Origin: Candidatus Cloacimonadales bacterium
GTDB taxonomy: Bacteria; Cloacimonadota; Cloacimonadia; Cloacimonadales; JAIOQZ01
Assembly (NCBI GenBank): GCA_963665815.1
Contig: OY762463.1
Coordinates: 3,712,001-3,776,000, forward strand
Direction of reading: 5' to 3'
DNA: 64,000 nt
Shown one piece after another: positions 47,336-61,401 of the stretch. The notes beneath the pieces were generated by a model. It was not told where the DNA came from. It saw nothing but the letters and a program-made list of their open reading frames with translations, and searched no databases. Position 1 is the first letter of the stretch. Each line of letters begins with the position of its first letter. The position numbers and the translations under genes were made by a program.

Positions 47336-48145
47336 ATGGATTTATATGGAGATGCTTTTGAAAGAATTAATGCCGCTTCTGAGATAAAGGTAGTGGACAG
47401 GCAGGATTCAGGGAATCAGAATCCTCCTTCATACCCTAATCATGATAAGAAGAAGCATAAAGAAGAAGCAGGCTCTGACAACTCAGATAGACTTCCGGAA
47501 TATGATGATTCGCAATGGATTCAGTATAATCTTGAACTTGGCAGACTTATAATTGAGAAGAAGAATCTGGAAATATCCCTTTACTCAGAAGAGAGAAAAT
47601 CCGGATCACGAGATTATGTTGCCAGTAAGATTGAATTGATTAAAAAGAATATATCTGAACTGGAAAATAAGATCGTAGCATTGGATTTTTCTTCTTTAAA
47701 GTTACCCGAATCACCTGTAGATGATGTCAATACTCAAATAAAATACCTGTCAAAATTACACAGGCTTTATAATGTATATCTTGAAATAACATCCAATGAA
47801 ACTTCAGCGATAGAGGAGGAGGATTTAGATACTCTTCAGCTGCTGATGGAACAGAAATCTACAGTTCTGGATTCAATACATACAACTCAAAATAATATCC
47901 TCTTTGATGTCTTTAAAAAAATGCCTGAAAAAACTGAAAAAAGAACTAAGGCAGATGCAATTCTTACCGATATTAATGTGAAGATTAAACAGATCATTGA
48001 CTCGGAAAACAAAAATAGTGTGGAGCTTGAGAACCAGAAAGAAGAGCTCAGACTTAGACTCGGTAAGAAAAGTATAGGTACAAGAGCGATCTCAAAATAT
48101 GCATCAGCACATATGAGATCACACTTTATCGATACAACCAAATAA
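47336..48145 (+). CDS. Flagellar-associated coiled-coil protein, C-terminal half FliT/FlgN-like
   Basis: Follows the sigma-28 promoter and precedes the flagellins; AIEEEDLDTLQLLMEQK...FIDTTK resembles export chaperones. Confidence 0.5.
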   Translation: MDLYGDAFERINAASEIKVVDRQDSGNQNPPSYPNHDKKKHKEEAGSDNSDRLPEYDDSQWIQYNLELGRLIIEKKNLEISLYSEERKSGSRDYVASKIELIKKNISELENKIVALDFSSLKLPESPVDDVNTQIKYLSKLHRLYNVYLEITSNETSAIEEEDLDTLQLLMEQKSTVLDSIHTTQNNILFDVFKKMPEKTEKRTKADAILTDINVKIKQIIDSENKNSVELENQKEELRLRLGKKSIGTRAISKYASAHMRSHFIDTTK

Positions 48146-48209
48146 AGAAAAAAGACACAGAACAAAGGGCAAGGAAGCCCGGAAAAAACAATCATCAAGG
48201 AGGATGAAC

Positions 48210-49172
48210 ATGTCACTCTTTATTAACAACAACCAGTATGCATTAAATGCATCAAACAACTTAAGATCTCATTACGCTAACATGGGTAAGTCAATTGAAA
48301 GACTTACAACAGGTTTGAGAATTAACTCAGCAAGAGACGATGCTGCCGGAATGGCTGTCAGAGAAGAAATGAGATCTGACATTGCAACTTACAATCAAGG
48401 CATCAGAAATGCAGAAATGGCAATTAACATGCTTCAGACTGCAGAAAGCTCAATGGCAATCATCGATGAAAAGCTCATGAGAATGAAACAACTTGCAGAA
48501 CAAGCTGCAACCGGAACTTACACACATGAGCAAAGACAGATTATTCACTCAGAATTTGCTGCAATGGCTGCCGAAATTGACCGTATCGCTGAATCAACCG
48601 AGTTTGGCGGAAGAAAACTTCTCAACGGTGACTTATCTACAGATGCTCACAACAACATAACTGTTGGTGGATGGCTTCAATCAGGTCCTGCTACATTAAC
48701 AGCAGACAATTATGACAGTGATGGCGAATATCGTCACAATGTTGGTGTAAAAGTTCACTTTGGTCTCACAAACAATCGTCTTGAAGACTATTACTTCATT
48801 AACATTGGAGATATGACAACAAACGGACTGTTTGAGAAGGTTGGAAACGAAACAGATACAGCAGCAAGCAAAATTTCTGTATCAACTCAGCACGTAGCTC
48901 AGATTGCACTTGAGCAACTTGATTCAGCTATTCTTGAGAAAGAACACCAGAGAGCTCACCTTGGTTCAATGATGGTAAGGCTTGAAAACACAATAGCTCA
49001 CCTTCAGTCACAATCAGAAAACCTTCAGGCTGCGGAATCACAGATTTCAGATGTTGATGTAGCATCAGAAATGACAGAATTCGTAAAAAGTCAGGTTTTA
49101 ACACAGGCTGCAGTTGGAATGCTTGCTCAAGCTAATTCTCTTCCACAAATGGCTCTCCAGTTACTTGGATAA
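48210..49172 (+). CDS. fliC: Flagellin 1 (most divergent copy)
   Basis: RLTTGLRINSARDDAAG...ISDVDVASEM...QANSLPQ; start 48210 fits SD AGGAGG spacing. Confidence 0.95.
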   Translation: MSLFINNNQYALNASNNLRSHYANMGKSIERLTTGLRINSARDDAAGMAVREEMRSDIATYNQGIRNAEMAINMLQTAESSMAIIDEKLMRMKQLAEQAATGTYTHEQRQIIHSEFAAMAAEIDRIAESTEFGGRKLLNGDLSTDAHNNITVGGWLQSGPATLTADNYDSDGEYRHNVGVKVHFGLTNNRLEDYYFINIGDMTTNGLFEKVGNETDTAASKISVSTQHVAQIALEQLDSAILEKEHQRAHLGSMMVRLENTIAHLQSQSENLQAAESQISDVDVASEMTEFVKSQVLTQAAVGMLAQANSLPQMALQLLG

Positions 49173-49375
49173 TAAAAGAAAGATATAATCTCAAAAACAA
49201 GCTTCAGATAAAAAGAAATAATTACGAATAGAAAACAGATTTTTGACAAGAAAATAGATGTGATGTGATAGATGTGTTACCTGGCACAAATATCAAAACG
49301 CACTCATAGCAGAAGCTAAATTATGAGTAACTCGTTCCCAACACAAGGATGATTCACTCATCAAGGAGGAAAAAG

Positions 49376-50335
49376 ATGTCACTCGTAATTAACCATAATC
49401 TGATGGCTATGAACACAGCAAGAAACCTGACTTCGGCATATGGAAGATTAGGTAATTCAGTAGAAAGACTTTCAACAGGATTGAGAGTAAATTCAGCTGC
49501 AGACGATGCAGCCGGACTCGCAATTCGTGAGAGCATGAGAGCAGAAATTGCTTCTCTTAATCAAGGTGTCCGTAATGCACAGGATGGTATCTCAATGATC
49601 CAGACAGCAGAAGGTGCAATGGCGGTAATTGATGAAAAACTGATTCGTATGAAAGAGCTTGCAGAACAGGCTGCTACAGGAACATATACTAACGATCAAA
49701 GAATGATTATTCATTCTGAGTTCGCAGCAATGGCTTCTGAAATCGATAGAATCGCAACAGCGACAGATTTCAATGGAGTTCATCTGCTTGACGGTAATGT
49801 GTCAATGGCAGGAACAAATGGTCAATGGACCTCAACAAACAACTGGACTGCAACAGAAGGTCTCTGGACAAATAGTTCCGGATGGCAGGAAGTTAATGGT
49901 ACTGCTGCTGCAAACGGAGATGTTACCGGTGGTGTAAAAATCCACTTTGGCTCCGGAAACAGCAGAGCAGAAGACTATTACTTCTTCAGAATCGGTGATA
50001 TGAGAACTTCATCTCTCGGAGTAGGTTCCGAAGATGTTGCTGTAAGTACACAGCACTCTGCACAGCTCGCACTTGAAAGAATAAACACAGCTATCATCAG
50101 GAAAGAAAATGCGCGTGCTCAACTTGGAGCTATTCAAAACAGACTTGAAAACACGATAACTAATATCTCAATTCAGGCTGAGAATATCCAGGCATCTGAG
50201 TCACGTATTTCCGACGTTGATGTAGCTCAAGAAATGACTGAATTTACCCGTAATCAAATCCTTACACAGTCCGCAGTAGGTATGCTTGCACAAGCAAATT
50301 CATTACCTCAGATGGCACTAAGATTGATCGGTTAA
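49376..50335 (+). CDS. fliC: Flagellin 2
   Basis: MSLVINHN...RLSTGLRVNSAADDAAG...SRISDVDVA; start after AGGAGG. Confidence 0.97.
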   Translation: MSLVINHNLMAMNTARNLTSAYGRLGNSVERLSTGLRVNSAADDAAGLAIRESMRAEIASLNQGVRNAQDGISMIQTAEGAMAVIDEKLIRMKELAEQAATGTYTNDQRMIIHSEFAAMASEIDRIATATDFNGVHLLDGNVSMAGTNGQWTSTNNWTATEGLWTNSSGWQEVNGTAAANGDVTGGVKIHFGSGNSRAEDYYFFRIGDMRTSSLGVGSEDVAVSTQHSAQLALERINTAIIRKENARAQLGAIQNRLENTITNISIQAENIQASESRISDVDVAQEMTEFTRNQILTQSAVGMLAQANSLPQMALRLIG

Positions 50336-50467
50336 CTATTGAGTGGATTATTTTCTCATAGATTGGTTTGGTTAAGCCTAGAAATGTCAGCAGATATGCC
50401 ATAATCGTATGAGACATTTGTCTTATACAGTATCATGGAAGTACATTCAACCAATCAAGGAGGAAAG

Positions 50468-51427
50468 ATGTCACTCGTAATAAATCATAACCTGATGGCG
50501 ATGAATACAGCCAGAAATCTTACAACATCCTACGGTAACTTGAGTACATCCGTTCAAAGACTTTCAACAGGACTGCGTATTAATTCAGCAGCAGATGATG
50601 CTGCAGGATTGGCAATCCGTGAAGGTATGAGAGCTGAAATAGCTGCTATTAATCAAGGAGTTAGAAATGCTCAGGATGGTATCTCAATGATCCAGACAGC
50701 TGAAGGTGGTATGGCGGTAATTGACGAAAAGTTAATTCGTATGAAAGAATTGGCAGAACAGGCAGCTACCGGTACATATACAAACGAACAAAGAATGATT
50801 ATTCATTCTGAATTCTCAGCAATGGCCGCAGAAATCGATAGAATCGCAACAGCGACCGATTTCAATGGAATTCACTTATTAAACGGTAACGTTTCAATAG
50901 CTGGATCTAACGGTCAATGGACATCTTCAAATACATGGACAGCAACTGAAGGCTTGCATACAAACAGTAGTGGATGGCAAGAAACTAATGGAACAGCAGC
51001 AGCAAATGGAGACATCACAGGTGGAGCTAAGATTCACTTTGGACCTGCCAATGACAGGGCTGAAGATTATTACTTCATCAGAATCGGTGATGTTCGAACA
51101 AGCGCATTAGGTATCGGAGCATCTGAGGTAGCTGTAAGTACTCAGCACTCAGCTCAGCTTGCTCTCGAAAAACTAAACACAGCAATGGTCCGTAAGGAAA
51201 ATGCTCGTGCTGCACTTGGTGCTGTCCAGAATCGTCTGGAAAACACCATTACAAACTTATCCATCCAAGCTGAAAATGTTCAGGCTGCAGAATCGAGAAT
51301 TTCTGATGTTGACGTAGCACAAGAAATGACCGAGTTCACAAGAAATCAGATACTGACACAATCCGCAGTAGGTATGTTAGCGCAAGCTAATTCATTACCA
51401 CAAATGGCACTCAGACTTATAGGTTAG
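50468..51427 (+). CDS. fliC: Flagellin 3
   Basis: Flagellin N- and C-terminal domains; start after AGGAGG. Confidence 0.97.
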   Translation: MSLVINHNLMAMNTARNLTTSYGNLSTSVQRLSTGLRINSAADDAAGLAIREGMRAEIAAINQGVRNAQDGISMIQTAEGGMAVIDEKLIRMKELAEQAATGTYTNEQRMIIHSEFSAMAAEIDRIATATDFNGIHLLNGNVSIAGSNGQWTSSNTWTATEGLHTNSSGWQETNGTAAANGDITGGAKIHFGPANDRAEDYYFIRIGDVRTSALGIGASEVAVSTQHSAQLALEKLNTAMVRKENARAALGAVQNRLENTITNLSIQAENVQAAESRISDVDVAQEMTEFTRNQILTQSAVGMLAQANSLPQMALRLIG

Positions 51428-51510
51428 ATTGAGAGGCTTCTTTCCATAATTCGAGATTGGTTTGGTTCCCCGGCAAACAGCAGAATGTCGGCTGTATAAG
51501 ACTAATGTCT

Positions 51511-51550
51511 TATATTAGCAAGGATGACTAATATACCAATCAAGGAGGAA
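51511..51550 (+). promoter_or_regulatory. CsrA-type binding sites in the flagellin 4 leader (equivalents at 48167-48180, 49344-49351, 50434-50441)
   Basis: TATATTAG-CAAGGATGA-CTAATATA hairpin with GGA in the loop, plus CAAGGAGG over the SD. Confidence 0.65.
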
Positions 51551-51552
51551 AG

Positions 51553-52512
51553 ATGTCACTCGTAATAAACCATAATTTGATGGCGTCGAATACTGCAAGA
51601 AATCTTACTGATTCTTACGGTCGTCTCGGCACGTCAGTGATGAGATTGTCTACAGGGCTACGTATCAATTCAGCAGCGGACGACGCTGCAGGTCTCGCAA
51701 TACGTGAAGGAATGAGAGCTGAAGTTGCATCATTGAATCAGGGAGTTAGAAATGCCCACGATGGTATTTCCATGATTCAAACAGCAGAAGGTGCAATGGC
51801 AGTTATCGATGAAAAACTTATACGTATGAAAGAGTTAGCAGAGCAAGCCGCTACCGGAACGTATACTAACGAGCAACGCTTGATTATACATTCCGAGTTT
51901 TCAGCAATGGCAGCTGAAATTGATAGAATAGCCACAGCCACAGATTTCAACGGGGTTAAGCTTCTGAATGGAAATGTCTCTATAGCCGGATCCGGTGGTT
52001 CCTGGTCTTCAACGAATACCTGGAGCGCTACAGAAGGCTTATGGACAAACAGTAGTGGTTGGCAGGAAGTTTCTGGTTCTGCCGATGCAAACGGTAATGT
52101 TACCGGTGGTGCAAAAATTCACTTCGGACCTGCTAATGACAGGGCTGAAGATTACTACTTTGTACGTATAGGTGATGTGCGAACAAGTGCTTTGGGAATT
52201 GGCTCAGCTGATGTTGCAGTCAGTACTCAGGATGCTGCACAGGCTGCTCTCGAGAAAATCAATACGGCTATGATTCGTAAAGAGAACGCTCGGGCTGCAC
52301 TCGGTGCTGTTCAAAACCGATTGGAGAACACAATAACTAACTTGTCAATTCAAGCTGAGAATATTCAGTCAGCAGAATCTCGTGTCTCAGATGTGGACGT
52401 AGCTCTGGAAATGACAGAATTTGTGAGAAATCAAATTCTAACACAGGCTGCAGTCGGAATGCTTGCACAAGCTAATTCGTTGCCTCAAATGGCTTTGCGT
52501 CTGATAGGATAA
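51553..52512 (+). CDS. fliC: Flagellin 4
   Basis: Flagellin N- and C-terminal domains; start after AGGAGG. Confidence 0.97.
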   Translation: MSLVINHNLMASNTARNLTDSYGRLGTSVMRLSTGLRINSAADDAAGLAIREGMRAEVASLNQGVRNAHDGISMIQTAEGAMAVIDEKLIRMKELAEQAATGTYTNEQRLIIHSEFSAMAAEIDRIATATDFNGVKLLNGNVSIAGSGGSWSSTNTWSATEGLWTNSSGWQEVSGSADANGNVTGGAKIHFGPANDRAEDYYFVRIGDVRTSALGIGSADVAVSTQDAAQAALEKINTAMIRKENARAALGAVQNRLENTITNLSIQAENIQSAESRVSDVDVALEMTEFVRNQILTQAAVGMLAQANSLPQMALRLIG

Positions 52513-52928: not shown

Positions 52929-53817
52929 CTTCGATCTCTTTGATTTCTTTATATGAAAAGCTGCCTTTTGGAGCATTACGTATTGTTCTTATCAGTGATT
53001 TGTTTTTAGATTTAAAAAAATTAGGTTTTCTAATATTGAATATTTTTAATCTGTTCAATTTATTTATTTTGAAACCTATGCATAGAAAAAAAACATCTTT
53101 GTTCTCGTCAACACAGAATAAGGTCATTAAATATCCGGATTCATTGATTCTGATTCCCCAGTCTCTTATTGAATGTATACTGAATTCAGGCATATTCTCC
53201 AATTTGAAATCCTGAAAATAACTTTTTAATGATATAAGATTATTTTCTCCGGTTTTCTTTATGAGAAGCTTAATAAAGTTACCCACATTTTCATATTGCT
53301 GATAAGTAAGAATATTCTTTGTCCAGGTTAAACCTTGTTCTTTCAGTATTGCAGCTTTCAAATTTCTCCTCATCCTTTGAACATATTTCTGAGCAGTTTT
53401 CAGCTTTATATCATTTTTTTTTGCAATTTCAGCAGAACTAAGTTGTTTAACGAAATAGTATTTATATATTTTTAAATCCAGTTTACTAAGGTGTTGCCTA
53501 AGTACTTCAAAAGGAATATCATCCTTATGTTTTTCAATTTCCTCATCATATGAAGGAATCTCATAGTTCACTTGTTCCTTAAGTGCTTCAAGTGATCTTA
53601 CTCTTTCACGTTTTTTTAATACATTTAGAGACATGTTATAGGCTACTTTGTACAACCAGCTCTTAGGGTGTTTTATCTCCTGTTCCTGAATGTAAAACTT
53701 ATAAAAGGCGTTCTGAACAATATCTTCTGCATCATCCGTATTTGAAGTTATACTGTATGCATAGTTAAAAATCTGGTATCTCAACTGAGCAAACAGTTGA
53801 TCAGTTATTTTTGTCAT
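52909..53817 (-). CDS. ECF-type sigma-70 factor with a ~150-aa C-terminal extension
   Basis: Region 2 DAEDIVQNAF...SWLYKVAYN; region 4 LSSAEIAKKNDIKLKTAQKYVQRMR; overlaps the selA 3' end by 17 nt. Confidence 0.85.
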   Translation of the reverse strand: MTKITDQLFAQLRYQIFNYAYSITSNTDDAEDIVQNAFYKFYIQEQEIKHPKSWLYKVAYNMSLNVLKKRERVRSLEALKEQVNYEIPSYDEEIEKHKDDIPFEVLRQHLSKLDLKIYKYYFVKQLSSAEIAKKNDIKLKTAQKYVQRMRRNLKAAILKEQGLTWTKNILTYQQYENVGNFIKLLIKKTGENNLISLKSYFQDFKLENMPEFSIHSIRDWGIRINESGYLMTLFCVDENKDVFFLCIGFKINKLNRLKIFNIRKPNFFKSKNKSLIRTIRNAPKGSFSYKEIKEIEEKKRLQ

Positions 53818-55192
53818 ACAGGGAAACCTTCAGGATCCGGGCAACAGAATCAGCAATGTACTGAAAATCTTTTGTATCTATACACAGAACATCAATAAGA
53901 ATAGTTCCTTCTCTTAACACACTCAGAATCGGCTTTTGTAGTTTCAGAAGGTCAAAAAAAAGTGAGTCTGTCTGTCTTGTATTTATATTGAGTTTCACAG
54001 CATAGCTGTTTCTCTTAAAATCAGGTAATGTACCACCACCACATCGTCCGTAGCTTTCTGTTACATCAGAATTTACATTCTCTCCCCTAAGAGTATTTTT
54101 CAAGTTTTCAGCTTTTAACTTCACATCATCATCAGCAAGATTGAGGAGTTTGAATAAGGGCGTATTTTCCATAAGCCTTTCTTCAGAGAAATAATTGGAT
54201 ATAACAGAAATTAACGAGCTGATTGTCAGCTTACCAATTCTATAAGTACGCATAAGCTGGGAGGAGTGAATTTTTTTAACACACTCTGATTTACCTGAGA
54301 TTATGCCAGCCTGTGGTCCACCAAGCAGCTTATCACAACTGAATGTAACAATATCTGCTCCGGCATCAATACAACTTTTTACGTCAGGTTCCTCCAGAGG
54401 AAGAGATTCCGGTTTTCTGAGTAATCCTGAACCAATATCATAGATGACAGGAATGTTGTGTTTTTTGCCAAGCTTAATCAGTTCTTTAAGCTCAACATCA
54501 CTTGTAAAACCGGTTATATGGTAATTAGACTGATGCACTTTAATTATTGCTCCGGTATTCTCGTTGATTGCATTTTCGTAATCCTTGAGATGAGTTCTAT
54601 TAGTAGTGCCTATTTCAACCATTTCAGCACCACTGAGTTTCATTATCTCCGGAATACGGAAAGAACCGCCTATTTCCACGAGTTCACCACGAGACACAAT
54701 CACTTCTTTGTCTTTTGCCAGAGTGTTAAGAGTAAGGAATACAGCTGCAGCATTGTTGTTGACTGCTATGGAATCTTCTGCACCGGTAACATATTTCAGT
54801 ATAGCTTTCAAATGATAGTTACGGTTACCGCGACGACCTTTATCCAGATCAAATTCCAGATTTGAGTAACCGGATACTCTTTCTGCCAGATCATTAATCA
54901 CATTAGGTCCTAAAGGTGATCTGCCAAGATTTGTATGAATGATGATTCCTGATCCGTTAATAACAGGTTTTAATCCGGGTTCGGACAGCTTCTTGATGAA
55001 ATCATAAACGGAATCGATCCAGAACTGTTCGTTAGCATCAGGAATATTGTCTTTCAGCAGCTTATTTTTTTCCAGCTTTATTGCTTCTCTGGCACAATAG
55101 ACTAAAAAGGAATGATCGAAAGTGGATTTGAATTCTGCAAACATGTCATCTTGCAGGAGTTTTTCTATACTTGGAATATTAAGTGCATTCAT
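53801..55192 (-). CDS. selA: L-seryl-tRNA(Sec) selenium transferase
   Basis: VINGSGIIIHTNLGRS, YSNLEFDL, VNNNAAA, SRGELVEIGGSFRIP, FSCDKLLGGPQAG. True start is ATG 55192; the longer ORF in the track runs through the tRNA. Confidence 0.96.
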   Translation of the reverse strand: MNALNIPSIEKLLQDDMFAEFKSTFDHSFLVYCAREAIKLEKNKLLKDNIPDANEQFWIDSVYDFIKKLSEPGLKPVINGSGIIIHTNLGRSPLGPNVINDLAERVSGYSNLEFDLDKGRRGNRNYHLKAILKYVTGAEDSIAVNNNAAAVFLTLNTLAKDKEVIVSRGELVEIGGSFRIPEIMKLSGAEMVEIGTTNRTHLKDYENAINENTGAIIKVHQSNYHITGFTSDVELKELIKLGKKHNIPVIYDIGSGLLRKPESLPLEEPDVKSCIDAGADIVTFSCDKLLGGPQAGIISGKSECVKKIHSSQLMRTYRIGKLTISSLISVISNYFSEERLMENTPLFKLLNLADDDVKLKAENLKNTLRGENVNSDVTESYGRCGGGTLPDFKRNSYAVKLNINTRQTDSLFFDLLKLQKPILSVLREGTILIDVLCIDTKDFQYIADSVARILKVSLYDKNN

Positions 55193-55206
55193 ATTTTCCT
55201 CATTAT

Positions 55207-55301
55207 TGGCCGCGAGGGCAGGAATCGAACCTGCCACAGACGGTGTTATCCGCCTGCTACTGATTTTGCAGACCAGTTGGACCACCAGATCCGTCCTCGC
55301 T
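55207..55301 (-). tRNA. selC: tRNA-Sec-type tRNA with a GCA (Cys) anticodon
   Basis: (A)GCGAGG AC GGAUC-UGGU-GGUCC A ACUGGU-CU GCA AA-AUCAGU A GCAGGCGG-AUAACA-CCGUCUGU G GCAGG-UUCGAUU-CCUGC CCUCGCG G CCA. Extended D stem with 4-nt loop, 6-bp anticodon stem, long variable arm, G73, encoded CCA; anticodon at 55267-55269; ends 14 nt before selA. Confidence 0.9.
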
Positions 55302-55340
55302 ATTAAGAAAGATTGAATATCTTATTCAATTTATTTACTA

Positions 55341-58040
55341 CTAATAATTATTGGCAATCAATTTTTTAACTTGTACGGCTGTAACTTTGTATTCAGGGAT
55401 TTTTGCGACTGGATCAATTTCTTTGTGGGTAAGTCGGTTCGCAGGACTTTCATGGAAATGAAAAGAAATGAAAACCACACCTTTTTTTATTCTATCAGTA
55501 ACTTCAGCTGCAATTGTAATTTCGCCTCTTGCTGATGAAACGGAAACGAATTCGCCATTATCAATACTTCTTTGAGCTGCGTCAAATGGAGATATTTTTA
55601 TTGTTGGAGGTGATAACCGATCGAACTCTTCACTTTTCCTTATCATTGTCCCTGTATGGAATTGATGCGCCAGACGTCCGGTAGTAAGAATCAGTGGGTA
55701 TTCACGGCTGCAAATTTCATAAGGTGGAACATAGTCCACGATTTTAAACTTTGGAAGTCCAATTGGAAAGCTATTTTCGTGAAGAATACTTGTACCAGGG
55801 TGTTCAATATCCGGGCATGGCCACTGAATTCCGTCTTCTTCGGTTCTATCAGATGTAATACCTCTATAGAATGGGATAGTCTCGTTGATTTCTCTGGTAA
55901 TATCCTCAGAATTCGAGTATTCCCAGTTATAACCCATTGCATTAGCGAGGTCAGTAACAATCTTCCAGTCATTTTCAACTAATCCAGGAGCATCAGTTGC
56001 TTTTCTCAGCTTCTGCACTCTACGCTCTGTGTTTGTGAAATGTCCTGTCTTTTCAGAGAAACAGGCTGCCGGTAGAACAATGTCAGCCATTTCAGCAGTT
56101 TCGGTCATGAATATATCCTGAACAATCAGCAAATCAAGGTTTTTAAGAGCTTTAATAGTGTGGGTCTGGTCCGGATCACTCAATACAGGATTTTCTCCCA
56201 TAACGTATATAGCTTTAATATCTCCAGATATGGCACTGTCCAGCATTTCTGTGATCGTTAATCCCGACTTATTGCTAATGTCAGATTTCCAGTAATCTGC
56301 GAATCTTTCTATAGCTTCAGGATTGGATACTTTTGCATAGCCCGGAAGAGTATCCGGAAGACAACCAACATCACAAGCACCCTGTACATTGGATTGTCCC
56401 CTGAGTGGATTGACTCCAGCTCCGGGAATACCAATGTTCCCACACATTAACTGTAGATTTGCCAGAGCGAGTACATTCTGGTATCCAGATGTGTGCTGCG
56501 TTATGCCCATTGCAAAATAAACAGCAGCGGTTTTTGCTTTTCCGAACAGTTCTCCAATCTCGTAAAGTGTTGAAGCTTTAATACCTGCTATCTCTTCAAT
56601 CGTTTCAGGTGCATACTTTGTCATAAGCATCTCATTTTTAAAGAGAGTCCATGAGTCCAAGTCAGTACGAGACTTAATATACTCTGGATCGAACAGGTTC
56701 TTTTTAATAATGACATGTATGATTGAGTTAATCAAAGCAGTATCTGATCCCGGTTTCTGGGATGCATAGATTGAAGCAAATTTTGCCAATTCAATTTTTT
56801 TGGGATCAATTACAATAAGCTTGGTGTTATGAAACTTAACAGCCTGCTTGATTTTGTTTCCAATTATTGGATGAGCGGCTGTTGTGTCAGAACCAATTAC
56901 AAGGATTGCATCAGCTTTATGGATATCCTGTAAATTGTTCGTCATTGCACCACTTCCAAGAGATTCTGCAAGACCTGCAACTGTTGACGCATGACATAAT
57001 CTTGCACAATGATCAACATTATTATTACCTATGCAAGTCCGAAAAAATTTCTGGAAAAGATAATTATCTTCGTTTGAACACTTTGCTGAAGAAAAACCTC
57101 CGATAGCATTACTGCCGTTTTCATTAATAATCTTTTGGAATTTATCAGCAATGATTTCGATTACAGTATTCCAGTCTGTCGGAACATGTTTTCCATTTTG
57201 TTTTATAAGTGGAGTTGTCAAACGTCTGTCAGAATGAACAAATCTGAATCCGAATCTGCCTTTACTGCATAGCATACCGTTATTGACTTCAGAATCCTCA
57301 ACTCCCCTAATGCGAATGATCTCACCGGTTTTCTTGAGTGTATGAATTTCAATGTTGCATCCCACTCCACAATATGTGCAGATGGATCTGATTTTATCAA
57401 TCTCTCTGTCTCGATATGCTCTTTTAGAGTTTTTGTCGTAAATTGCTCCTACAGGACAAAGCTGAGAGCATTCTCCACATTGAACACAACTTGATTCACC
57501 GAGTTTTTTATTGTAGTCTATGGTAATTCTTGTATTTCCACCTCTGTCAGCGAAGTTGATTACTTCGTTAACAACAGTATTGTTACAACCGCTTACACAA
57601 TTCCCACAACTGATGCATTTATCAATGTCTTTTACGATGAACTCAGATGATGTGTCAGGTTTATTAAGTCTTTCACCAATAACATAATCATCCATCTCTG
57701 AATAGAATACTGCATCCTGTAATGCACAATGAAGGTTTGCCGGACAGTTTAGACAGCTATGATTACCTGATTCAAGAATAAGTTTAAGGATCATGGTAAC
57801 TGTATGTCTAACCATTTTGGACTTGGTTCTTACTTCCATGTTCGGTGAGACTGGAGTGGAACATGCAGGTACGAGCCTATTGGCAACTTCAACAAGACAG
57901 ACGCGGCAGTTACCGCAAATTCCTGTTTTAGGGTGATAACACAAGTGAGGAATATACATATTGTTCCTCATGGCGCATTGCAGAATTGTCTCGTTTTCTT
58001 TTGCCTGCAGAACCTGATTGTTAATTTTTATGGAAAACAT
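55341..58040 (-). CDS. fdhF: Formate dehydrogenase alpha subunit (Mo/W-bisPGD) with an N-terminal NuoG/HydA-like FeS module
   Basis: 2Fe-2S, HxCxxC and 2x4Fe-4S motifs; CTYCGVGC; DHCARLCHAST; PLRGQSNVQGACD; KIPEYK. Confidence 0.95.
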   Translation of the reverse strand: MFSIKINNQVLQAKENETILQCAMRNNMYIPHLCYHPKTGICGNCRVCLVEVANRLVPACSTPVSPNMEVRTKSKMVRHTVTMILKLILESGNHSCLNCPANLHCALQDAVFYSEMDDYVIGERLNKPDTSSEFIVKDIDKCISCGNCVSGCNNTVVNEVINFADRGGNTRITIDYNKKLGESSCVQCGECSQLCPVGAIYDKNSKRAYRDREIDKIRSICTYCGVGCNIEIHTLKKTGEIIRIRGVEDSEVNNGMLCSKGRFGFRFVHSDRRLTTPLIKQNGKHVPTDWNTVIEIIADKFQKIINENGSNAIGGFSSAKCSNEDNYLFQKFFRTCIGNNNVDHCARLCHASTVAGLAESLGSGAMTNNLQDIHKADAILVIGSDTTAAHPIIGNKIKQAVKFHNTKLIVIDPKKIELAKFASIYASQKPGSDTALINSIIHVIIKKNLFDPEYIKSRTDLDSWTLFKNEMLMTKYAPETIEEIAGIKASTLYEIGELFGKAKTAAVYFAMGITQHTSGYQNVLALANLQLMCGNIGIPGAGVNPLRGQSNVQGACDVGCLPDTLPGYAKVSNPEAIERFADYWKSDISNKSGLTITEMLDSAISGDIKAIYVMGENPVLSDPDQTHTIKALKNLDLLIVQDIFMTETAEMADIVLPAACFSEKTGHFTNTERRVQKLRKATDAPGLVENDWKIVTDLANAMGYNWEYSNSEDITREINETIPFYRGITSDRTEEDGIQWPCPDIEHPGTSILHENSFPIGLPKFKIVDYVPPYEICSREYPLILTTGRLAHQFHTGTMIRKSEEFDRLSPPTIKISPFDAAQRSIDNGEFVSVSSARGEITIAAEVTDRIKKGVVFISFHFHESPANRLTHKEIDPVAKIPEYKVTAVQVKKLIANNY
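56967..56996 (-). promoter_or_regulatory. SECIS-like hairpin downstream of the active-site UGU codon
   Basis: UGU CAU GCG UCA ACA GU UGCA-GGUCU-UGCA; compare E. coli fdhF UGA CAC GGC CCA UCG GU UGCA-GGUC-UGCA. Confidence 0.55.
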
Positions 58041-58053
58041 AATGTGTCCGGAT

Positions 58054-58088
58054 AAAAAAAAAGAGAGGTATGGGTTTGACCATACCTC
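58054..58088 (-). terminator. Intrinsic terminator between the nuoF/hydB-like gene and fdhA
   Basis: GAGGUAUGG-UCAAAC-CCAUACCUC then UC and U9 on the minus strand. Confidence 0.85.
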
Positions 58089-58100
58089 AAAATGTATTTA

Positions 58101-59954
58101 TTAATCTTGCTCTGCAGCTTCAGCTTGAGCTTTTCTGAATTGAATGATTTCTTCTCGCATTCCGGCGTTCTTATTAACAGCATTAACTGGACATACATCC
58201 ACGCAGTTTCCACATTTAACACAATCAATTTGTTTGATAGTGTATTTTTCTTCTCTGGAACCGGAGATACAGTTTGTCGGGCAGTTTTTAGCACAAAGTG
58301 AACAGCCGATACATTTATCTTTGTCTATATCAAAGTTGATGAGATCAAGACAAACAAGTGTTGAACATTTATTTTCTTTGATATGTTCTTCGTATTCATG
58401 TCTGAAGTATCTTATTGTACTTAAAACAGGATTTGGTGCAGTTTGACCAAGACCACAGAGTGATGTTTGTTTTATAACATTACCAAGCTCAATAAGTCTT
58501 TCGATGTCACCTTCTTTACCTCTACCTGATGTAATGTTATTCAAGATTTCGTGCATATGTTTAAGACCTATTCTACATGGTGTACATTTACCGCATGATT
58601 CTTCAACTGAGAATTCCAGGAAGAATTTGGCAACGTTAACCATACAGTTACTGTCGTCCATAACAATAACACCACCGGAACCCATCATCGCACCTTTTTC
58701 AAGGAGTGACTGATAGTCTATCTGAACGTCAAGGTGATCGTTTGTGAGGCATCCGCCTGAAGGTCCGCCAAGTTGAACAGCTTTAAATGCTTTTCCATTA
58801 GGAATTCCACCACCAACTTCAAAAATAAGTTCTTTAAGACTGATTCCCATTGGAACTTCAACAAGACCGGTATTTTTAACATCACCTGTAAGAGCGAATA
58901 CTTTTGTACCTTTACTTGTTTCAGTACCCATTTGAGAGAACCATTCAGCACCTTTTGTGAATATTGTAGGAAGATTAGCATATGTTTCAACATTGTTAAC
59001 TGCTGTTGGTTTTCCCCAGAGTCCTTCTACTGATGGATATGGTGGTTTTACGGATGGTTGACCTCTTTTACCTTCGATAGAAGCGATAAGAGCTGTTTCT
59101 TCTCCACAGACGAAAGCACCGGCACCGGTTCGTACTTCAGCTTTGAAAGAGAAGTCTGAACCGAAGATGTTATCACCGAGGATACCGAGTTCAAGTGCCT
59201 GACTTATAGCTTGTCTGATACGTTTTATTGCAAGCGGGTATTCAGCTCTGATGTAGAAATATCCTTCGGAAGCTCCGATACAGTATGCAGCAATTGCCAT
59301 ACCTTCAAGTACTCGATGAGGATCTCCTTCAAGGAGTGATCTGTCCATGAATGCTCCAGGGTCACCTTCGTCACCATTACAGATAACGTATTTCTGATCT
59401 GCAACAGGTTTTCTTGTGAGTTCCCATTTCAACGCAGTAGGGAAGCCACCGCCACCACGACCACGTAGTCCTGATTCTTTCACAACACTGATACCATCTT
59501 CTGGTGACAGTTGTGTAACGAGCTTACCAAGAGCTTCGTAACCTCCGAGAGCGATATATTCTTCAATACTTTCAGGATCAAGGTGTCCGCAGTTTTCCAG
59601 AGCAACTTTAACCTGTTTCTTATAGAAAGGAATTTCTTTCTGGTCTACAATAACTTTATTTTCATCTTCTTTAAGCATAAGACGTTGAACCGGACGACCT
59701 TTTATAAAGTGTTCCATTACCATTTCTTCAACATCTTCTACGGTAACTTTCTGATAAAATGTGCCATCAGGATAAATCTTGATAACAGGACCGTAGTCAC
59801 AAGGTCCCATACAGCCTGTTTCAATAATGTTTATTTCATTAAGAATATCATTGGCTTCAAGAACCTGAATCATTTTTTCTTTAATCTTAAGTGCTCCTGC
59901 GGAAACACAACCTGAACCGCAGCATATTAGAACATCAATTCTTTTAACTGGCAT
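58101..59954 (-). CDS. nuoF: NADH/FMN-binding NuoF/HydB-type subunit
   Basis: N-terminal 2Fe-2S; SGLRGRGGGGFP; NGDEGDPGAFMDRS; GGPSGG; SCGKCTPCRIG; C-terminal 2x4Fe-4S. Confidence 0.93.
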   Translation of the reverse strand: MPVKRIDVLICCGSGCVSAGALKIKEKMIQVLEANDILNEINIIETGCMGPCDYGPVIKIYPDGTFYQKVTVEDVEEMVMEHFIKGRPVQRLMLKEDENKVIVDQKEIPFYKKQVKVALENCGHLDPESIEEYIALGGYEALGKLVTQLSPEDGISVVKESGLRGRGGGGFPTALKWELTRKPVADQKYVICNGDEGDPGAFMDRSLLEGDPHRVLEGMAIAAYCIGASEGYFYIRAEYPLAIKRIRQAISQALELGILGDNIFGSDFSFKAEVRTGAGAFVCGEETALIASIEGKRGQPSVKPPYPSVEGLWGKPTAVNNVETYANLPTIFTKGAEWFSQMGTETSKGTKVFALTGDVKNTGLVEVPMGISLKELIFEVGGGIPNGKAFKAVQLGGPSGGCLTNDHLDVQIDYQSLLEKGAMMGSGGVIVMDDSNCMVNVAKFFLEFSVEESCGKCTPCRIGLKHMHEILNNITSGRGKEGDIERLIELGNVIKQTSLCGLGQTAPNPVLSTIRYFRHEYEEHIKENKCSTLVCLDLINFDIDKDKCIGCSLCAKNCPTNCISGSREEKYTIKQIDCVKCGNCVDVCPVNAVNKNAGMREEIIQFRKAQAEAAEQD

Positions 59955-59969: not shown

Positions 59970-60338
59970 TTACTTGCTCTCGGTTGAGATTACATAGTCT
60001 TCACAAACAAAACCGTTAATAATATGACTTTCAACAACTTTGACAGCTTTTTCAGAATCCATTTTTCCATAAGTTATTGTTGGCTTTCCTTCTTCAATAA
60101 TATCAACAACAGGCTCCATGGAAGATAAGCCTTTTTCACCTGTTTGAGTAACAAGTACATCAGTGAGATTATGTCTTGTAATTTCGTTGAGGAAAGTTTT
60201 CATAACATCTCTGGCTCCCATAGCAATTCCGGATGTTCCCATTCCAACAACAATTTTGATTCTATGATCTGAACTTCGGAGCTTCATTTCATTCTGTGCT
60301 TTTTCTCTGATTTTTCTCAATTCTTCCAAAGTTTTCAT
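59970..60338 (-). CDS. HydD-like thioredoxin-type ferredoxin subunit lacking its usual Cys ligands
   Basis: KTLEELRKIREKA, VGMGTSGIAMGAR, QTGEKGLSSMEP, VESHIING. Confidence 0.8.
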   Translation of the reverse strand: MKTLEELRKIREKAQNEMKLRSSDHRIKIVVGMGTSGIAMGARDVMKTFLNEITRHNLTDVLVTQTGEKGLSSMEPVVDIIEEGKPTITYGKMDSEKAVKVVESHIINGFVCEDYVISTESK

Positions 60339-60907
60339 TAGATTTCCTCCAGTTTTGTCATTTTCAATCCTTCAAGTAATGTCTCTTCAATAAAAGATAT
60401 CACATCAGGATATGTAATCGGTATACCACCGAGTTCTTCCTTTATCTCTTTTGTTTTCAATTCAAATACTTTTTTACCTGAAAATCCGATTCTCTCATAA
60501 TAAATATCAAAGTCTGCTTCAGAATGACCGATTATTGCCCCAAGCAAAGTATCTGTTATGTTTCCGAGAGGCATACGATCAATACTATCAAGTTGGAAAA
60601 CAGCTTTAAGTTTAGTGCCTTCACCCGGTTTGCTGTAAACATCAAAACTGCCATTGCAGTTTTCAGCATTCTGCTTGAGTAAAGGTACGCCTAAGCCAAT
60701 CTTCTTTTGTCTTTCGACTTTGGTTGTGTAAAACGGATTTACAACATGTTCCAGAACTTCTTCGTCCATTCCGGTTCCATCATCTTCAACTCCGATCGTA
60801 ATAGTGTTGCGTCTAATGTCAGCTTTAATGGACACCTTGACACAAGTTGCTTTTGCTCGTACAGAGTTTTCTATCAGATCGAGAATATGAAGTGATAAAT
60901 CCTGCAT
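60338..60907 (-). CDS. Histidine-kinase-like ATPase of hyd-type operons
   Basis: LSLHILDLIENS, DDGTGM, PFYTTK, GLGVPLL, IDRMPLG. Confidence 0.88.
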   Translation of the reverse strand: MQDLSLHILDLIENSVRAKATCVKVSIKADIRRNTITIGVEDDGTGMDEEVLEHVVNPFYTTKVERQKKIGLGVPLLKQNAENCNGSFDVYSKPGEGTKLKAVFQLDSIDRMPLGNITDTLLGAIIGHSEADFDIYYERIGFSGKKVFELKTKEIKEELGGIPITYPDVISFIEETLLEGLKMTKLEEI

Positions 60908-61401
60908 TAAACAGAAGTCTCTTTAATTTTACTGATTATTTCTTTGATCTGTTTTTTAGTTTCAATTCTTCCAAAAGTATCTTCACCAATTACAAATACA
61001 GGTGCAAGAGAGCATGCTCCAACACAACGTACTGATGTAAGTGTGAACATATTGTCTTCGGTAGTTTCTCCGAGTTTTACATTAAGTTCATCGCTAAGCA
61101 TCTGGATAAGGCGTTCTGCACCTTTAACATAGCAGGCTGTACCTGTACATACATTAATGATGTGTTTTCCTCTTGGTTTCATTGAAAAGAAGTTATAGAA
61201 TGTGACAACACCATAAATTTGATTTATTGGTATACCTGTTTTATCTGCGATAAATTCCTGAACTTCCATTGGTAAATAACCAAATATCTCCTGAGCTTTA
61301 TGAAGAATTTCAATAAGCGGATTTCTGATCTTCATTTTTTCTTCGATTACTGCTTCAAGTTTCTTATAAAGCAAGTTATCTGTTGATTGACTATGTGTCA
61401 T
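60907..61401 (-). CDS. nuoE: NuoE/HydC-type 2Fe-2S subunit
   Basis: YGVVTFYNFF, CTGTAC, CVGACSLAP. Confidence 0.92.
   Translation of the reverse strand: MTHSQSTDNLLYKKLEAVIEEKMKIRNPLIEILHKAQEIFGYLPMEVQEFIADKTGIPINQIYGVVTFYNFFSMKPRGKHIINVCTGTACYVKGAERLIQMLSDELNVKLGETTEDNMFTLTSVRCVGACSLAPVFVIGEDTFGRIETKKQIKEIISKIKETSV

Follow-up and report, generated by a model that had tools for sequence, protein, structure and literature searches.

The stretch of DNA analysed here (the window, 64,000 nucleotides of contig OY762463.1 from the assembly GCA_963665815.1 of Candidatus Cloacimonadales bacterium) contains on its minus strand a tRNA gene flanked by fdhA, encoding the alpha subunit of formate dehydrogenase, and selA, encoding L-seryl-tRNA(Sec) selenium transferase (table 1). 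The tRNA gene starts 39 nt after the fdhA stop codon and ends 14 nt before the selA start codon, the latter distance being as given in an earlier note made from the sequence alone, which regarded the gene as a selenocysteine (Sec) tRNA carrying a cysteine anticodon, GCA. The fdhA gene next to it is the sole copy in the genome and belongs to an operon-like row with genes for NuoE/HoxE-like and NuoF-like subunits.

This tRNA gene is the sole one called by ARAGORN in the window (95 nt), and the program labels it tRNA-Cys with the anticodon gca, as the earlier note expected of standard pipelines. The covariance-model search proposed in the note gives a different family: RF01852 (tRNA-Sec) is the only Rfam family above its gathering score in the whole 64 kb, matching positions 55212-55300 with 52.8 bits (gathering score 47, E 8.5e-08). 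The minimum-energy fold of the tRNA is a cloverleaf (-41.9 kcal/mol, z = -2.9 relative to shuffled sequences). It comprises an acceptor helix of 6 bp (GCGAGG/CCUCGC), with A1 facing G72 unpaired and two linker bases after the helix, a 5-bp D stem with a UGGU loop and an unpaired C-A in the sixth position, a 6-bp anticodon stem, an 8-bp variable arm, a 5-bp T stem, and a 3' end made up of G73 and an encoded CCA. The GCA anticodon in its CU-GCA-AA loop and most of the Sec-type geometry claimed earlier (the UGGU loop, the anticodon stem, the variable arm, G73 and CCA) are thus as described, but the D stem has 5 bp and is not '6-bp-like', and the acceptor stem has 7 bp with a terminal mismatch. 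Counted together, the acceptor/T branch is 7/5, i.e. 12 layers of which the first is mismatched, and differs from the classical bacterial 8/5 (13-bp) branch.

The score, the long variable arm, the 6-bp anticodon stem and G73 place the molecule in the tRNA-Sec family, the UCA anticodon and the 13-bp (8/5) branch being the family features that it lacks. With its 95 nt, 8-bp variable arm and G73 it does not conform to canonical tRNA-Cys (approx. 74 nt, a short variable loop, U73), a normal 74-nt representative of which, with GCA and U73, is encoded elsewhere in the same genome (positions 3848885-3848958). According to passages of PMC5389517, seryl-tRNA synthetase (SerRS) is served by a long variable arm and G73, and cysteinyl-tRNA synthetase (CysRS) by U73 together with GCA; the earlier argument that CysRS needs U73 accords with the U73 of the ordinary tRNA-Cys and the G73 of the window tRNA. 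A 'Cloacimonetes type' 7/5 tRNA-Sec is described as a 12-bp variant of genuine tRNA-Sec in passages of the Secmarker paper referring to Mukai 2016 (PMC5330540), and non-UCA tRNA-Sec species are documented as well (passages of PMC10778597 and PMC5330540). These comparisons support the identification of the window gene as the selC gene (tRNA-Sec) of this organism, with GCA replacing UCA.

Table 1. Features at the tRNA locus and related sites elsewhere in the genome. Positions refer to the window unless contig C1 of the genome (G000) is indicated.
Feature	Position	Strand	Evidence
Sec-type tRNA, 7/5 'Cloacimonetes-type' body, GCA anticodon, G73, encoded CCA	55207..55301	-	ARAGORN, Rfam RF01852, cloverleaf fold
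GCA anticodon, G34 at 55269, loop CUGCAAA	55267..55269	-	sequence; ARAGORN anticodon position 33; same in contigs from three runs and in G001
selA, L-seryl-tRNA(Sec) selenium transferase, ATG at 55192, start 14 nt after the tRNA	53801..55192	-	TIGR00474, 522 bits (cut-off 267.9)
fdhA, formate dehydrogenase alpha, N-terminal NuoG-like Fe-S domain, 899 aa, no in-frame stop	55341..58040	-	TIGR01591, 793.6 bits (cut-off 666.25)
UGU codon, residue 349, motif HCARL-C-HAS, TGA in FdhA of G011 and G035; proposed Sec codon	56994..56996	-	FdhA ortholog comparison
SECIS-like hairpin UUGCA-GGUCU-UGCAG, starting 13 nt after UGU349	56966..56980	-	homologous to the hairpin in 17 orthologs
8-bp A/U inverted repeat (AUUGAAUA..UAUUCAAU) in the 39-nt spacer from the fdhA stop to the tRNA	55312..55330	-	sequence reading
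Terminator-like G+C hairpin and T run, between the NuoF-like gene and fdhA	58065..58088	-	consensus scan only
NuoF-like flavoprotein subunit, upstream in the same operon-like row	58101..59954	-	TIGR01959, 494 bits, below cut-off 558.65
NuoE/HoxE-like 2Fe-2S subunit, first gene of the row	60907..61401	-	NF005747, 173 bits, below cut-off 224
Omp28-related paralog 1	G000 C1:781485-783806 (L193:186-2507), outside the window	+	hairpin scan
Omp28-related paralog 2	G000 C1:3942633-3945011 (L194:134-2512), outside the window	-	hairpin scan
selD, TGC at the active-site position	G000 C1:3915889 (L192:890), outside the window	+	SelD comparison

The genome is represented by a single 3.96-Mb contig that is 98.7% complete and contains 41 tRNA genes and one tmRNA; no UCA tRNA-Sec is found among these 41. 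In a scan of the genome with RF01852, the window tRNA is the only match above the cut-off, the next best being a tRNA-Ser with 40.2 bits. The remaining components of the Sec pathway that the earlier note proposed to look for are present, namely an intact selB (TIGR00475; 650 aa comprising the GTPase, domain 2, SelB beta-barrel and SelB winged-helix-3 domains) and an intact selD without an in-frame stop, in addition to the canonical tRNA-Cys.

We further compared 61 genomes of the same order (denoted G001, G002, etc., the present genome being G000), 46 of which have a match above the RF01852 cut-off. The anticodon is GCA only in 21 of these 46 genomes and UCA only in another 21, with four genomes possessing both forms. 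The GCA and UCA molecules share the same body: of the 42 distinct sequences (22 with GCA, 20 with UCA), all have G73 and 41 an encoded CCA. Position 1:72 is A:G in 16 of them, C:A in 18, A:A in three and a Watson-Crick pair in five, and because of the five that do pair at 1:72, the reading as a 7-bp acceptor stem followed by G73 is fixed.

The hypothesis that GCA is a sequencing or assembly error in what is really a UCA tRNA-Sec can be regarded as refuted, with a negligible probability left to it. The same anticodon loop occurs in G001, a genome of the same genus, and GCA versions recur in 25 of the 61 related genomes. Contigs separately assembled from three DNA-like runs are identical to the window over 55000-57100, including position 55269, where the earlier note wished to see the reads checked, although the runs come from one sample, which may be the source of the assembly itself; no RNA run was listed for 54900-57100. 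An error would also leave without explanation that the codons at the putative target sites, described below, fit GCA.

The first of these sites is in the fdhA gene itself. FdhA orthologs were found in 20 of the 61 related genomes, and the motif surrounding residue 349 is present in 19 of them, with the codon at the Sec position being TGA in two (G011 and G035, both UCA-only), TGT in five and TGC in 12. GCA-only genomes account for 16 of the 17 orthologs with TGT or TGC (TGY), the remaining one being that of G015, a genome with both tRNAs. Downstream of this codon the DNA shows striking conservation and folds into a hairpin with the loop GGUCU. In an alignment of 18 orthologs, 97.2% of the cells are paired, a value reached by none of 500 shuffles, and sliding the pairing partner reduces it to 19-65%. 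RNAalifold reports seven pairs, three of them with double changes; in two cases (pairs 18-30 and 21-27) the double changes concern synonymous sites. The C-G and G-U pairs of most relatives have become A-U and U-A in the genus considered here, the substitutions affecting third codon positions that are synonymous (Ala, Leu and Val). Compensatory changes at such positions are hard to explain otherwise than by selection on the RNA. Judged from this comparison, the hairpin of the two TGA-containing fdhA genes must be a selenocysteine insertion sequence (SECIS), and one that the TGY genes have retained. A lower helix considered for the fdhA SECIS was dropped, as columns 12 and 39 show no covariation.

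Further candidates come from a scan of the genome for TGA, TGT or TGC codons in long frames that have a GGUC-looped stem of 5 bp or more 6-16 nt further on, which returned 15 matches including fdhA. Two of the matches lie at a CxxC motif of paralogous proteins (~790 aa) predicted to be sorted by the type IX secretion system (T9SS). The N-terminal domain of both paralogs resembles the 'Omp28-related selenoprotein' model NF045500, with scores (27-33 bits) far below the cut-off. They exhibit a strong GGUC-loop hairpin 14 nt after TGC, and their homologs in UCA genomes have TGA in place of the first Cys codon (UxxC). In paralog 1 a 12-nt insertion shifts the spacing, and either Cys codon might be the marked one. 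Of the 61 related genomes, 46 encode homologs of these proteins. Where sequences were checked, the motif opens with TGA in all 14 UCA-only genomes concerned as well as in G015, and with TGC in 10 GCA-only genomes plus G003, G006 and G007; the homolog from G047 has a reported stop elsewhere and TGC in the motif. The hairpin is 85.2% paired, a level that none of 500 shuffles attained; in one family (f12) the hairpin is displaced by approximately 5 nt.

The third family is SelD. A single in-frame TGA interrupts selD in 18 of the 19 UCA-only genomes with a match (the exception being G043) and in none of the 20 GCA-only genomes. In the sequences checked, this TGA sits in the motif SG-U-GAK, with TGC occupying the same place in the present genome. 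The codon is followed after 9 nt by a 7-bp hairpin (UUAGGGC-CGUGC-GCCUUAA in the present genome), which, evaluated across 12 sequences, is 84.5% paired (1 of 500 shuffles as high) and includes three pairs with double changes. A second SelD subtype, represented by G012, G016, G022 and G043, has a plain Cys codon and no hairpin. The fourth family is a DUF1573-rhodanese protein (PF07610, 98.4 bits). Five UCA-only genomes encode U-G-C in it (TGA-GGN-TGY), a motif given for DUF1573 selenoproteins in the table of a 2026 review (passage of PMC13188914), and TGC replaces TGA in this genome, in G001 and in four others. A hairpin (CCAGUU-GGUC-AACUGG) 13 nt on is found in all of them, and a U-A pair of the present genome corresponds to a compensatory C-G in G001. 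A DUF1573 homolog from G002 (L245) has the order C-G-U, with TGA third in the motif; no Sec-type tRNA was found in this genome, which is 81% complete.

Taken over the four families, and with respect to the sequences checked, the Sec site is TGA in the UCA-only genomes, the SelD of G043 excepted, and TGC or TGT in every GCA-only genome. This pattern bears directly on the idea that the GCA tRNA-Sec reads UGA through a G34-A mismatch, its true targets being UGA-containing genes elsewhere in the genome. A precedent of a kind exists, given that both UCA and GCA forms of tRNAReC (a class of Sec-shaped tRNAs discussed below) are reported in passages of PMC13582414 to mediate SECIS-dependent recoding of UGA. 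Yet all four families with TGA in UCA genomes have TGY here, and a scan for UGA-containing genes in this genome, in which 10,369 TGA codons with open frames on both sides were reduced to 578 by a codon-usage score and to 55 by a dominant-frame filter, returned nothing convincing, albeit the scan was crude and short genes could be missed. Most of the 55 candidates are adjacent genes with a ribosome site of their own, and the two candidates with strong hairpins were rejected as a repeat element and as the antisense strand of a small gene. UGA thus appears to be out of use for Sec in this organism, and we consider it very unlikely that the tRNA serves UGA codons.

A search of the phylum with a strict sequence pattern (232 species genomes) found the GCA form in 25 genomes, all from this order, the UCA form in 84 and both in four, the pattern for GCA being one that misses at least G004. 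Among the matches listed for the outgroup, 80 selA loci of other phyla yielded 15 adjoining tRNA-Sec genes, all with UCA, and 13 of these 15 have a 7/5 body (these 13 loci representing Cloacimonadota, Fibrobacterota, Bacteroidales, Chitinivibrionales and others). In the tRNA tree, two to four changes of the anticodon suffice. SelB and SelD matches are present in 46 and 45 of the 61 related genomes, respectively. We also considered whether GCA and UCA genomes have separate SelB lineages, an idea abandoned because the identities grade into one another without a break (41-57%); the one SelB to stand apart is the second copy in the genomes with both tRNAs.

The four genomes with both GCA and UCA Sec-type tRNAs are exactly those with two SelB matches. 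In G003, G006 and G007, the GCA tRNA heads a tRNA-selA-selB row and the UCA tRNA adjoins the second SelB, which is 33% identical to the SelB of the present genome. G015 combines TGC in FdhA with TGA in SelD and in the Omp28-related protein. These arrangements suggest two parallel Sec codes in one cell. The loci considered in this connection are L051-L054, L055, L057 and L058 (genomes G003, G005, G006 and G007) and, for G015, contigs C92 and C82.

Since the anticodon and the codon have switched together at hairpin-marked sites of four unrelated families while the Sec enzymes are intact, the simplest reading is that the GCA molecule is a working tRNA-Sec, and we consider it probable that Sec is inserted at UGY codons under the direction of SelB and SECIS elements. 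The earlier suggestion that this organism inserts Sec at a Cys sense codon, then based on the tRNA, is in this way supported by comparative evidence from UGU349 and its hairpin in fdhA and from the joint switch in the four families. The proposed mechanism is as follows. SerRS would charge the GCA tRNA with serine by virtue of the long variable arm and G73, and the adjacently encoded SelA would turn Ser into Sec using selenophosphate from SelD. SelB would then bind both the Sec-tRNA and a SECIS hairpin beginning about 11-14 nt after particular UGU or UGC codons, and bring the tRNA to those codons only, in competition with Cys-tRNA-Cys on EF-Tu. Sites predicted for this genome comprise UGU349 in fdhA, the UGC at the active site of selD, the position equivalent to UxxC in the two Omp28-related T9SS proteins and the first Cys of C-G-C in the DUF1573-rhodanese protein. 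Aminoacylation, conversion to Sec, delivery by SelB and the ratio of Sec to Cys are all inferred from sequence. A likely benefit of such an arrangement would be that cells lacking selenium still obtain a full-length enzyme, with Cys at the codon concerned, where otherwise a truncated protein would result.

Several observations weigh against this interpretation. The tRNA body departs from the E. coli determinants in having 12 rather than 13 acceptor/T layers, the A1-G72 mismatch, and a 5-bp D stem with C-A; these departures are, however, common to the UCA tRNAs of the same order, and the terminal mismatch might help to exclude EF-Tu, by analogy with initiator tRNA. As GCA itself serves CysRS as a strong identity element (passages of PMC5389517), some charging of the window tRNA with Cys is conceivable, and the share of Sec in the products could be low, because the ordinary tRNA-Cys competes at the same codon. 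The fdhA hairpin of this genome has only five pairs, compared with six or seven in most relatives, and the FdhA of G022 (L079) has TGC without any hairpin despite a GCA Sec-type tRNA in the genome. A Cys codon at the Sec position of FdhA is thus not always a recoding target, and the G022 protein looks like a plain Cys enzyme and a natural negative control. Finally, the relatives are not independent, so the counts of joint switches overstate the number of events; given the tRNA tree, the counts would correspond to a few events, each then consistently maintained.

The involvement of Cys could be taken one step further by assigning the molecule to the tRNAReC (selC*) group of cysteine tRNAs with a Sec-like shape; CysRS would then charge it with Cys for delivery by SelB to SECIS-marked codons. 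The combination of a GCA anticodon with a Sec-like body is indeed the one known from selC* tRNA-Cys (passages of PMC5389517 and PMC13582414), and the anticodon is a major CysRS identity element (passages of PMC5389517). The class is, however, defined by U73 in passages of the same two papers, whereas the window tRNA and the 42 distinct relatives have G73, U73 being found in the tRNA-Cys of the genome. Moreover, selC* genomes retain a canonical tRNA-Sec as described in passages of PMC5389517, and the present genome has none; the gene directly precedes selA; and SelB-delivered Cys at a codon already read by tRNA-Cys would have no evident purpose. We thus deem this explanation improbable.

Another conceivable scenario is that the system is a relic, with Sec already replaced by Cys in the proteins and the tRNA and hairpins decaying without function. 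Every predicted site does encode a workable Cys, and natural Cys forms of formate dehydrogenase and SelD exist, the hairpin-less SelD subtype (G012, G016, G022 and G043) and G022 FdhA being examples among the related genomes. Decay is nevertheless difficult to reconcile with intact selA, selB and selD genes, with the presence of SelB and SelD in most of the related genomes, and with a GCA anticodon that is uniform in 22 distinct tRNAs with no scatter of changes. It is equally at odds with the way in which compensatory synonymous changes have preserved pairing within GCA lineages, the pair G000 and G001 among them, so a relic seems highly doubtful.

Returning to SelB-directed insertion of Sec at UGY codons, a broader version of this interpretation is that a whole lineage, accounting for about one quarter of the Sec-using genomes of the phylum, has moved its Sec codon from UGA to UGC/UGU for the entire selenoproteome, SelD included, with a selenium-facultative coding as the outcome and two Sec codes operating in four genomes. 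We regard this broader version as about as likely as not. If the interpretation is true, annotation systematically turns the selenoproteomes of these lineages into cysteine proteins: everything is labelled cysteine by gene callers and tRNA finders, and the selenoproteins for this reason escape standard annotation and UGA-based searches. SelD, the maker of the selenium donor, would be among the facultative selenoproteins. The sister genomes, whose homologous sites hold either UGA or UGY, would constitute a natural experiment on how a recoded codon moves and on what a SECIS requires for prevailing over EF-Tu instead of a release factor. Compact units of this kind, tRNA-selA with a 12-bp tRNA-Sec, are furthermore already in use for engineered selenoprotein production.

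Some other features of the locus and the genome are worth recording. The hairpin at 58065-58088 may act as an attenuator inside the operon-like row, and a weak promoter-like site is located at 55357-55328, near the spacer between fdhA and the tRNA. In the formate dehydrogenase row, the NuoE-like and the 2Fe-2S gene are separated by 60338-60907 (minus strand), which encodes a 189-aa protein matching only the ATPase end of histidine kinases. On the plus strand, a row of five open reading frames (269-330 aa) occupies 47336-52512, upstream of a sigma-factor gene, with the last frame (51553-52512) matching flagellin models. The genome encodes T9SS-sorted proteins and has a G+C content of 34-41%. 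A search for Spo0A gave response-regulator matches below the cut-off and no Spo0A above it, and searches for GrdA (PF04723) and FlaA (PF04620) gave no matches, with the controls equally silent.

Among known systems, the selC and fdhF genes of E. coli exemplify the same logic of SerRS, SelA, SelD and SelB combined with a hairpin just after the codon; there, however, the codon is UGA, the tRNA is an 8/5 molecule with a UCA anticodon and the competitor is release factor 2, whereas here a sense codon would be contested by Cys-tRNA-Cys. The apical loop sequence GGUC resembles that of the E. coli fdhF SECIS. As regards the selC* tRNA-Cys (tRNAReC), to which a study by Vargas-Rodriguez from 2018 is said to be devoted, the window tRNA shares with it the Sec-like shape, the GCA anticodon and the proposed use of SelB and SECIS. 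Passages of PMC5389517 (Mukai 2017) nevertheless attribute to that class U73, a bulged 8/4 branch in some groups and the company of a canonical tRNA-Sec, as opposed to a G73, 7/5 molecule that is the only Sec-type tRNA of its genome and directly precedes selA. The allo-tRNAs described in passages of the same paper are similar in their long variable arm, Sec-like D arm, 12-bp branch, Ser identity and sense anticodons, but they have an 8/4 or 9/3 branch and no link to selA or SECIS-marked codons, while the window tRNA has a 7/5 branch and adjoins selA. It matches the 'Cloacimonetes-type' 7/5 tRNA-Sec in passages of PMC5330540 in having a 7-bp acceptor stem, a T stem of 5 bp, G73 and, with C-A counted in the D stem, a single linker nucleotide. 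The 13 outgroup 7/5 tRNA-Sec genes, on the other hand, have UCA and mostly an A1-U72 pair, in contrast to the GCA and the A1-G72 mismatch of the window tRNA.

For natural insertion of Sec at a sense codon we could trace one experimentally confirmed example, Aeromonas salmonicida, and the same device appears in our data in another lineage, in many genomes and in at least four families. Mukai et al. (2016, Angew Chem) reportedly found tRNA-Sec(GCA) and UGU-encoded Sec in the formate dehydrogenase of A. salmonicida subsp. pectinolytica 34mel. A full-text literature search (for 'Cloacimonetes' with 'tRNASec', and for tRNA-Sec with a GCA anticodon) found no paper on a lineage-wide, multi-gene pattern, although the 2016 study named the 'Cloacimonetes type' of tRNA-Sec, and GCA forms from this lineage may already figure in the supplements of Mukai 2016 and 2017. 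Recoding of Cys codons to Sec is already known from A. salmonicida, while the scale and the dual-code genomes are possibly new. Citing passages in PMC10778597, PMC6267555, PMC10573291 and PMC8124441 document for A. salmonicida that UGU, a Cys codon, is recoded to Sec by means of a SECIS and a cognate tRNA-Sec, the latter having a 12-bp acceptor branch, in line with the GCA tRNA-Sec of an A. salmonicida strain mentioned in the earlier note, and mention other bacteria that use UGC or UGU with anticodon variants. The system described here, known from sequence alone, agrees with that of A. salmonicida, as those passages present it, in the Cys-reading anticodon, the tRNA-Sec with a 12-bp acceptor branch, the Cys codon and SECIS in formate dehydrogenase, and the presence of selA, selB and selD. 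It differs in belonging to another phylum-level lineage, with 36% G+C, T9SS proteins and no Spo0A above the cut-off, in extending to 25 of the 232 genomes of the phylum and in the apparent recoding of at least four families, including SelD.

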